Part shown: positions 39,691 to 40,469 of the stretch, one piece after another
Layout: each line of letters begins with the position of its first letter
Numbering within the stretch: position 1 is the first letter of the stretch
Virus record (IMG/VR): IMGVR_UViG_3300028837_001424
Coordinates: 32,001 to 96,000 of that record
Strand: one strand, 5' to 3'
Length of the DNA stretch: 64,000 bases
Origin: a virus
The notes under the pieces: model-generated
Told to the model about the DNA's origin: nothing
Database searches by the model: none
The model's input: the letters and a program-made list of their open reading frames with translations, nothing else
Translations under genes and position numbers: made by a program

Positions 39691-39825
39691 GCTTTGCTAT
39701 GCTTTGCTCTGCTTTGCTGCGCTCTGCTGCGCTGCGCTTTGCTAAGCTTTGCTGGGCTCGGCTACGCTGCGCTTGGCTGCGCTCCGCTTGGCTAGGCTCG
39801 GCTGCGCTCTGCTGCGCTGCGCTAC
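39691..39825 (-). ncRNA. Pentamer array of 27 perfect NN-AGC units downstream of RAMP-like gene 2; putative guide RNA
   Basis: Plus strand (GCTNN)x27 with no phase break; starts 5 nt after the stop codon, followed by TTTTT on the minus strand. Confidence 0.75.
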
Positions 39826-39830
39826 GACCA

Positions 39831-40469
39831 CTATTCCATTGTTACAGGGTTAGTATCCTTCTCAAGAGTTTGCACAGTCCCGATTTCTTTAACTTTCTTC
39901 CATTCAACTACTTCAAATGAACCAAAGGTTGGTCTATAGGCACATAGCCCTACGAATATACCGCCACGATTAAACCAATCCTCGGCCTTGGAAATGCTGA
40001 AATACTCATTTTCGTAAATGCTTATATTGAATTTTAATGACCAGGGCAAATCCAAAACGGGACGACTCACATTGACCCTAACTTTTGGGTTTGGCCTTGC
40101 CATTCTTGTATCTATGTAAAATGGAGACTTATTCAAATCTTCGGCGACCTCCAGTTTTACATTGCTTTCTTCGTGTTCTTTTCCATTTTGGAAAGGAATA
40201 TATGCGGGTTGCACAGAGATACAACCACGGATCACTGGAGACAAAGTTTTCCACTCTTTGCTATTTACAAACATCCGTAGGCAGGAATGGCTATCTTTAC
40301 TCGCCAGAAAGCCTTCGATGCTTGAGCTTGGCAAGCAGACGGTTTTGCCGTCGCGGGGGTCGAGGTAAATTTTTTGCTCGACGGGCGTTTCGTCCTGCGA
40401 GACCCATTTGTCGAACATGATCGGCGTCAGACCGTTTAAGACTACTTGTACTTTCACCATGTTTAGCAT
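39831..40469 (-). CDS. Stand-alone RAMP/Cas7-like protein 2 (divergent paralog of 36502)
   Basis: LNGLTPIMFD, LPSSSIEGFL, SRP...W, GGIFVGLCAYRPTFGSFEV align motif-for-motif with protein 1. Confidence 0.7.
   Translation of the reverse strand: MLNMVKVQVVLNGLTPIMFDKWVSQDETPVEQKIYLDPRDGKTVCLPSSSIEGFLASKDSHSCLRMFVNSKEWKTLSPVIRGCISVQPAYIPFQNGKEHEESNVKLEVAEDLNKSPFYIDTRMARPNPKVRVNVSRPVLDLPWSLKFNISIYENEYFSISKAEDWFNRGGIFVGLCAYRPTFGSFEVVEWKKVKEIGTVQTLEKDTNPVTME

Follow-up and report, generated by a model that had tools for sequence, protein, structure and literature searches.

A probable VIPR system with a non-canonical AGC scaffold in a phage genome, and a matching change in the first-base pocket of its Vipr protein

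VIPR (Viral Interference Programmable Repeat) systems, as described in the main text of the preprint that introduced them, combine a minimal RAMP protein, Vipr, with guide RNAs (vrRNAs) and an accessory vap gene (10.64898/2026.04.26.720920). According to that text, the vrRNAs are built of pentamers in which GGY alternates with NN, followed by a 3' tail, and the NN bases pair with double-stranded DNA, every third base being skipped, often at the wobble position. It places the systems mostly in phages and proviruses, where they silence rival phages and satellites, and reports that the SUSP1 and P. fulva arrays are transcribed, with vrRNAs of about 100 nt co-purifying with Vipr. Its Methods allow the "related consensus" forms NNNGG, YNNNG and NNNNG beside YNNGG. 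The cryo-EM structure of SUSP1 Vipr revealed a helical filament with one protomer per repeat, in which G1 is hydrogen-bonded by H17 and the G-loop residue D177, G2 lies between R138 and W178, with W178 stacking on it, and the Y3 pocket includes R179 (10.64898/2026.04.26.720927). Satellites encode solo vrRNAs that divert the phage Vipr to decoys (10.64898/2026.10.15.759431). A further preprint reports 21 clusters of period-5 arrays with non-canonical triplets beside Vipr-like folds, of which its text names GAC, CAC, WGT and TGH (10.64898/2026.10.21.760802).

We have analysed a 64-kb stretch of DNA (hereafter the window) from a virus record in IMG/VR; the record comprises 112,591 bp and has a CheckV completeness of 100%. 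This complete phage genome contains exactly two vipr genes. One belongs to a canonical GGY system, with a GDWR-loop Vipr and an HNH partner, and the other to an AGC-type system located 2.7 kb away. The features considered below are the following, all on the minus strand:

39691..39825, minus strand: vrRNA array of 27 NN-AGC pentamers, a predicted guide RNA gene (direct reading; shuffles).
39736..39825, minus strand: possible first guide, units 1-18, ending AA-TT-AA (suggested by the NN string and the relatives' guides).
39691..39735, minus strand: possible second guide, units 19-27, ending AA-AT-AA (suggested by the NN string and the relatives' guides).
39831..40469, minus strand: AGC-type vipr gene, a 212-aa ORF for a minimal Cas7-like RAMP (homology, AF2 fold).
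40297..40827, minus strand: accessory gene with a T5orf172/MUG113 domain of the GIY-YIG clan (Pfam).
39838..39865, minus strand: sigma-70-like hexamers directly 5' of the array (a consensus match only).
40848..40876, minus strand: sigma-70-like hexamers upstream of the accessory gene (a consensus match only).
36502..37140, minus strand: canonical Vipr with a GDWR G-loop, likely start 37098 (PDB 36pp profile match).
36300..36470, minus strand: GGY-NN arrays downstream of the canonical vipr (sequence reading).
37420..37720, minus strand: GGY-NN arrays upstream of the HNH accessory gene of the canonical system (sequence reading, Pfam).

The likely true start of the AGC-type vipr is the second ATG, at 40460. 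A 64-aa ORF at 39473-39667 (-), preceded by a strong GGAGG ribosome-binding site, begins 23 nt past the AGC array; no family was found for it and no counterpart was seen in other AGC-type loci. The flanking phage genes displayed no DNA similarity to any of 50,697 phages, and eight neighbouring ORFs returned no family in PHROGs. Elsewhere in the window, a 564-aa ORF at 8-1702 (+) carries a 2'-5' RNA ligase/Acb1-like (anti-CBASS) domain and a GNAT acetyltransferase domain, and a sugar-modification block at 25789-36301 (+), with MptE-like, DegT aminotransferase, group 1 glycosyltransferase and other genes, reaches the canonical VIPR locus.

The 212-aa ORF at 39831-40469 (-) ends ...GLCAYRPTFGSFEV..., and its paralog at 36502-37140 (-), which ends ...GLGDWRPAKGGPYGRFEV, has its motifs in the same order. 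The two Viprs of the window share about 18% identity and both match phrog_4652, a phage family of unknown function; a Pfam search with the AGC-type protein gave no family. The AF2 model of the AGC-type protein, based on 28 homologs, reached a pLDDT of 87.5 and a pTM of 0.82, and its top PDB folds were Cmr4, Csm3, Cas7-11 and type VII Cas7 (Foldseek E about 1e-5, prob 1.0). A profile of the AGC clade aligned with that of type II (SUSP1-type) Vipr with an hhalign probability of 98.5% and an E-value of 1.5e-15, and it matched PDB 36pp, "SUSP1 Vipr protein", across the thumb and G-loop (E 3.5e-6). The canonical paralog matched 36pp over its full length (E 1.8e-29); it is 36-40% identical to the Vipr of Felixounavirus, Pseudomonas, Mycobacterium and Gordonia phages and has matches in 135 phage records. 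For the AGC-type protein, 50,697 phage records yielded only two relatives, both weak. The original prediction had taken this ORF for a divergent RAMP-like paralog, and both the match of its model to Cas7-family chains and its profile homology to SUSP1-type Vipr bear this out. Modelling and homology thus support its assignment as a Vipr, that is, a predicted minimal, single-RRM Cas7-like RAMP with a thumb and a G-loop.

The RRM core, thumb and glycine-rich loop are shared with Csm3, Cmr4 and Cas7 of class 1 CRISPR systems (type III, type VII and Cas7-11), proteins that oligomerise along the guide RNA. These systems, however, work in a 6-nt register with contiguous 5-nt pairing segments, compared with 5 nt and 2 nt here, and they depend on CRISPR repeats together with cas genes (Cas6 or Cas5 and others), all of which are absent from this locus. 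The search for type III CRISPR-Cas features found no repeat-spacer array in the window and no cas families among the neighbours, and the period is 5. Another protein that deserves comparison is TRAP (trp RNA-binding attenuation protein), which binds (G/U)AG triplets spaced by 2-3 nt. As would be the case here, a constant triplet recurring at 5-nt intervals is recognised by an oligomer and the spacers are left free, but the TRAP fold is unrelated, its oligomer is a ring and not a filament, and its spacers carry no information. A TRAP-like triplet binder was dropped as a candidate, since the fold and the literature pointed to Vipr.

The closest described relative is type II VIPR, known from Escherichia phage SUSP1 and a Pseudomonas fulva prophage. 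The present locus resembles it in being phage-borne, in having a single small RAMP with a thumb and a G-loop, in carrying same-strand arrays of three fixed and two variable bases beside the gene, and in the presence of an adjacent accessory gene. It differs in its triplet, which is AGC and not GGY, in its 27 contiguous units (9-16 in published arrays), in apparently having no recognisable conserved 3' tail, and in the low identity of its Vipr to the SUSP1-like paralog mentioned above. Because CNNAG formally fits YNNNG, the AGC locus can be treated as a variant of the class and not as a non-member, though its triplet is not GGY. The locus also shares a 5-nt period, a non-GGY triplet and an adjacent Vipr-like fold with the non-canonical clusters (10.64898/2026.10.21.760802); the text describing these, unlike the present analysis, neither explains the switch at the level of residues nor contains a genome with two triplets.

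The array occupies the minus strand from 39825 to 39691 as 27 consecutive NN-AGC pentamers, with AGC in 27/27. The NN string re-read from this strand was identical to that reported in the original prediction, as was the spacing, the vipr stop TAG (39833-39831) being followed by the five bases TGGTC and then by the first pentamer. The window contains 22 runs of six AGC-NN units, every one within the tract, against an expectation of 0 from 100 window shuffles. The 64-kb window showed no long-period repeats anywhere, the folding of the tract was no better than that of shuffles (z +0.56), and an Rfam search of the window locus and four AGC-type loci returned no family and no hammerhead.

The tract had also been described as one long unit with no AT-rich linkers. 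There are indeed no such linkers within it, but the first part of the description may hold only partly. Units 2-5 (GC GC AG GC) are repeated as units 19-22, and units 16-18 (AA TT AA) resemble the terminal units 25-27 (AA AT AA), both being tail-like. Given this recurrence and the position of the tail-like units, the tract may consist of two abutting guides of 18 and 9 units rather than one. The "staggered" arrays of the VIPR preprint abut likewise, according to its legend to fig. S18 (10.64898/2026.04.26.720920). The AGC guides of the relatives have 11-19 units (30 in one locus, L050), usually begin after (T/C)ATC and end ...ATAGC AAAGC ACAGT, with a linker of some 40 nt after this end. The window array ends AAAGC TTTTTACATC, running into the ribosome-binding site of the next ORF without the ACAGT-type 3' end of its relatives.

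Each strand has one frame that stays open throughout the tract, which could therefore be thought to encode a pentapeptide-repeat protein with a 15-nt super-period, for instance through the plus-strand ORF 39639-39920. We regard the probability of this as negligible: an invariance of 5 nt cycles through all three codon phases, which selection on a protein does not yield; TAG stops occur in two of the three sense frames (units with NN = xT); the plus-strand ORF runs antisense to vipr and matched no family; and the arrays of the relatives are intergenic and separated by AT-rich linkers.

To place the array in context, we have compared it with related loci. Period-5 same-strand arrays adjoin the gene in 47/48 IMG/VR loci and 5/5 metagenome loci. 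Same-strand pentamer arrays accompany 52/54 related loci, and 112 of the 113 parsed arrays lie on the gene strand. These arrays stand beside homologs of only 25-50% identity. NN-AGC arrays were found in all six related AGC-type loci recovered (L007 and L049-L053), whose proteins are 37-51% identical to that of the window; they include the five closest metagenome loci (about 40-50% identity) and the closest viral locus, L007 (37%). The latter, like the other IMG/VR relatives, comes from a virus record, and a portal gene adjoins it. Across the seven divergent loci, 228/234 units have exact AGC, and 15 of the 16 dinucleotides occur at NN.

The first variable base is purine-rich in both AGC-type and GGC-type arrays (76% and 74% A+G, respectively; L001-L053 and the window) and rarely T, and the dinucleotide TA occurs in none of the 234 AGC-type units. 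A bias of this kind could arise if most of the guides had been taken from sense strands of genes (codon position 1), or it could reflect a structural constraint.

The triplets were tabulated from chains of at least four units lying no further than 1.5 kb from the gene. By chain count, 46 loci had only GGY and four loci plus the window only AGY, with no mixed locus; the partial AGC-type loci L052 and L053 add to the AGY group. Two loci, L029 and L055 (the latter from Burkholderia phage vB_E436, PQ789831.1 30424-31038), had no pentamer array within 1.5 kb by this chain criterion, and they may use another consensus or distant guides. In a maximum-likelihood tree of the homologs, the 45 GGC loci formed a clade (support 99/98) and the AGC loci all fell outside it, next to the type II outgroup; the clade of the window had a support of 91/97, and L007 was likewise outside the GGC clade. 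The expectation that protein and triplet co-vary was thus upheld: the partition by triplet is perfect across array-bearing loci and follows the tree, without mixing, and every related AGC-type locus carries an AGC array.

These data bear on two readings in which the tract would not be a guide. It could be a slippage-prone microsatellite, or a non-functional simple repeat that merely lies beside the gene, and the four internally duplicated units, together with period-20 sub-repeats in the relative L049, are what slippage might leave. This reading is extremely improbable, as the arrays track the strand and the clade of the gene, next to highly diverged homologs, and keep AGC while NN varies; an unlinked microsatellite is refuted on these grounds. 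Alternatively, the array could act as DNA, providing iterated double-stranded sites (iterons, a packaging or a partition site) for a neighbouring protein, an idea with which the 5-bp period, about half a helical turn, would agree. The near-complete strand coupling argues instead for a transcript, the modelled protein has an RNA-binding RAMP fold with a G-loop and a thumb, and the homologous SUSP1 and P. fulva arrays are transcribed into RNA that co-purifies with Vipr, making the DNA-site reading highly unlikely.

We have then investigated which residues of the protein accompany the change of triplet. The 14 sequences of the AGC clade and the 45 of the GGC clade have no residue in common at twelve columns of the alignment. 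One of these columns is that of the D177-equivalent: all 45 GGC members have Thr there, the AGC clade has Ala in 12 sequences, including that of the window, and Asn in 1, and the two type II proteins have Asp. The alignment of this column is unambiguous because it is anchored by G174 and R179, and hhalign gives the same pairing. The R138- and R179-equivalents are invariant, as in type II VIPR, and the W178-equivalent stays aromatic or His/Asn. The window Vipr keeps the contacts for base 2 (Arg136 and the aromatic residue 178) and for base 3 (Arg179). Judging from the aligned residues, a side chain able to form hydrogen bonds would have been lost only at the base-1 contact, in keeping with the replacement of G by A at that base only. 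Another column that tells the two clades apart has Tyr in all 45 GGC members; in the AGC clade it has Trp in the Vipr of the window (W22) and Phe in the other 13. In the MAFFT alignment this column faces H17, and in that of hhalign it lies two residues past the partner of H17, the invariant Asp20. The change from DW to AY in the G-loop had been put forward as a candidate specificity determinant, and this proposal gains support from the D177-G1 and W178-G2 contacts in the cryo-EM structure (10.64898/2026.04.26.720927) and from the Thr versus Ala/Asn column.

Among 150 cluster representatives (P0053-P0201), the D177-equivalent was Thr in 65, Ala in 14, Asn in 11 and Ser in 10, with others outside the search pattern. 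The G1 pocket has thus diversified well beyond the array-bearing loci seen here, and Ala and Asn types may be frequent in metagenomes.

In the SUSP1 guide, GGY>AGY was among the substitutions tested, and perturbing GGY abolished silencing, as stated in the text of the preprint (10.64898/2026.04.26.720920). The use of AGC guides by a DW-type Vipr is therefore unlikely. That GGY>AGY is among the disruptive substitutions, and that the window array is without the 3' end motif of its relatives, would also suit a VIPR paralog that has decayed or become inactive, its array having drifted from GGC to AGC and lost its function. We consider decay very unlikely, since 27 perfect AGC units in 27 are the opposite of drift, AGC is common to the six other loci despite their divergence, the gene is intact with a confidently predicted fold, and the pocket residue has changed in step with the triplet. 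Taken together, the Vipr, the guide array and the matched G1-pocket change make a VIPR system with a non-canonical AGC scaffold by far the most probable identity of this locus, one that we hold with high confidence.

The 3' end of the T5orf172/MUG113 gene overlaps the AGC-type vipr by about 170 nt in a different frame. A T5orf172/MUG113 domain stands upstream of vipr and overlaps it likewise in at least 27 related GGC-clade loci, where the overlap uses the +2 frame of the first 170-335 nt of vipr. As both the domain and the overlap recur in so many loci, we take this gene to be the usual accessory gene of the family and not a stray homing endonuclease. It differs from the vap genes of type II VIPR, which encode winged-helix or HTH proteins, in its GIY-YIG-like domain, and T5orf172/MUG113 is not among the vap domains named in the text of the VIPR preprint (WH-like, HTH-like, HNH; 10.64898/2026.04.26.720920). 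In 38/53 loci, the reading frame of the upstream gene extends without interruption into vipr, over its first 170-350 nt and in the +2 frame, and the +1 frame is not open in this way; in the canonical system, the HNH gene overlaps vipr in the same manner (36962-37098). From the reading frames, the long out-of-frame overlap of accessory gene and vipr may be conserved, and the texts of the VIPR preprints make no mention of it.

Target searches were performed with the NN bases gapped according to the skip rule (NNx). Against its own genome, the 27-unit guide matched at 31/54 positions, equal to shuffles, and periods 2, 4 and 6 were also at chance, as were guide windows of 10 units. No period-3 excess was found for 111 arrays against their own 4-6-kb loci, and 15 AGC-type arrays compared with all collected loci stayed at chance level. 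Exact NNx searches of IMG/VR, whose windows together span the guide, gave 0 matches for units 5-14 and 9-18 and 3, 3 and 1 matches for units 10-17, 19-27 and 1-9, respectively, with flanks at chance level, agreeing at only 5-12 of 36-38 positions; an exact NNx scan with one L007 guide window also gave 0 matches. Against 185,579 species genomes, units 5-14 had 31 matches (L059-L089), all in high-GC taxa and with flanks of at most 12/34. In NNx form these units read A-R-L-H/Q-G-A-H/Q-A-V-R, and their matches exceed the prediction of a uniform model; we attribute them to a compositional effect. Because such scans need 8-10 perfect consecutive units and are hence insensitive, their null outcome is not evidence against targeting. 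The text of the VIPR preprint reports no self-targeting by its guides (10.64898/2026.04.26.720920).

The neighbouring GGY system provided an internal control in the same genome. Its guide A2 (36399-36458, minus strand) matches codon positions 1-2 of the G-loop region of its own vipr (36514-36543, minus strand; K-G-G-P-Y-G-R-F-E-V) at 18/20 positions, with period 3 (one skipped base) only, and 0/300 shuffles were as good. The skip rule is thus obeyed by this guide. Over all 12 units the match is 75%, under the 80% NN-match cut-off of the preprint. Guide A2 is probably aimed at rival copies of its vipr, which agrees with the published vrRNAs aimed at the vipr genes of rivals. Neither of two other decodings, of guide A1 against a GT2 gene and of guide B against an integrase, had an in-genome match above shuffles.

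By analogy with SUSP1 Vipr, the transcript of 39825-39691 would be bound by the AGC-type Vipr with one protomer per pentamer, and the protomers would form a helical filament burying the constant triplet and presenting the two variable bases. The buried triplet would be A-G-C instead of G-G-Y, with the first-base pocket changed to match. The 27 NN dinucleotides would then pair with a double-stranded DNA target, skipping every third base. The guide would likely be directed at genes of a rival phage or a satellite, with silencing as the outcome or, given the T5orf172 partner, possibly cleavage.

A further possibility is that the two VIPRs of this phage are mutually insulated, the GDWR-loop protein using only GGY guides and the GLCAYR-loop protein only AGC guides, with the switch made by a small change of the G1 pocket: Ala in place of Asp/Thr at the D177-equivalent, and Phe/Trp in place of Tyr two residues past the H17-equivalent. 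We regard this as a serious candidate whose chances fall slightly short of even. If true, the change of scaffold would shield the guides and the protein of the phage from the decoy solo vrRNAs of rivals (10.64898/2026.10.15.759431), and the GGY and AGC Viprs would be a ready-made orthogonal pair for multiplexed programmable DNA binding.

The AGC type had been suspected to be an undescribed subtype. This may stand for the triplet itself, AGC/NN not being among those named in the text of the VIPR preprints, whose full motif list is in Fig. S10A (10.64898/2026.10.21.760802). It does not stand for the system: the VIPR class, its mechanism and non-canonical triplets are already known from 2026 preprints, and there is no new class here. 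What the present analysis adds is a clade-level test of co-variation, a residue-level account of the switch, the T5orf172 partner and the occurrence of GGY and AGC systems together in one genome. RNA-guided DNA recognition by VIPR has been described only recently and is argued to predate CRISPR, and a natural AGC reader with a co-changed residue makes it possible to test directly, and at little cost, how the scaffold is selected by Vipr. That one phage carries both types suggests a role for scaffold switching in the arms race between phages and satellites.
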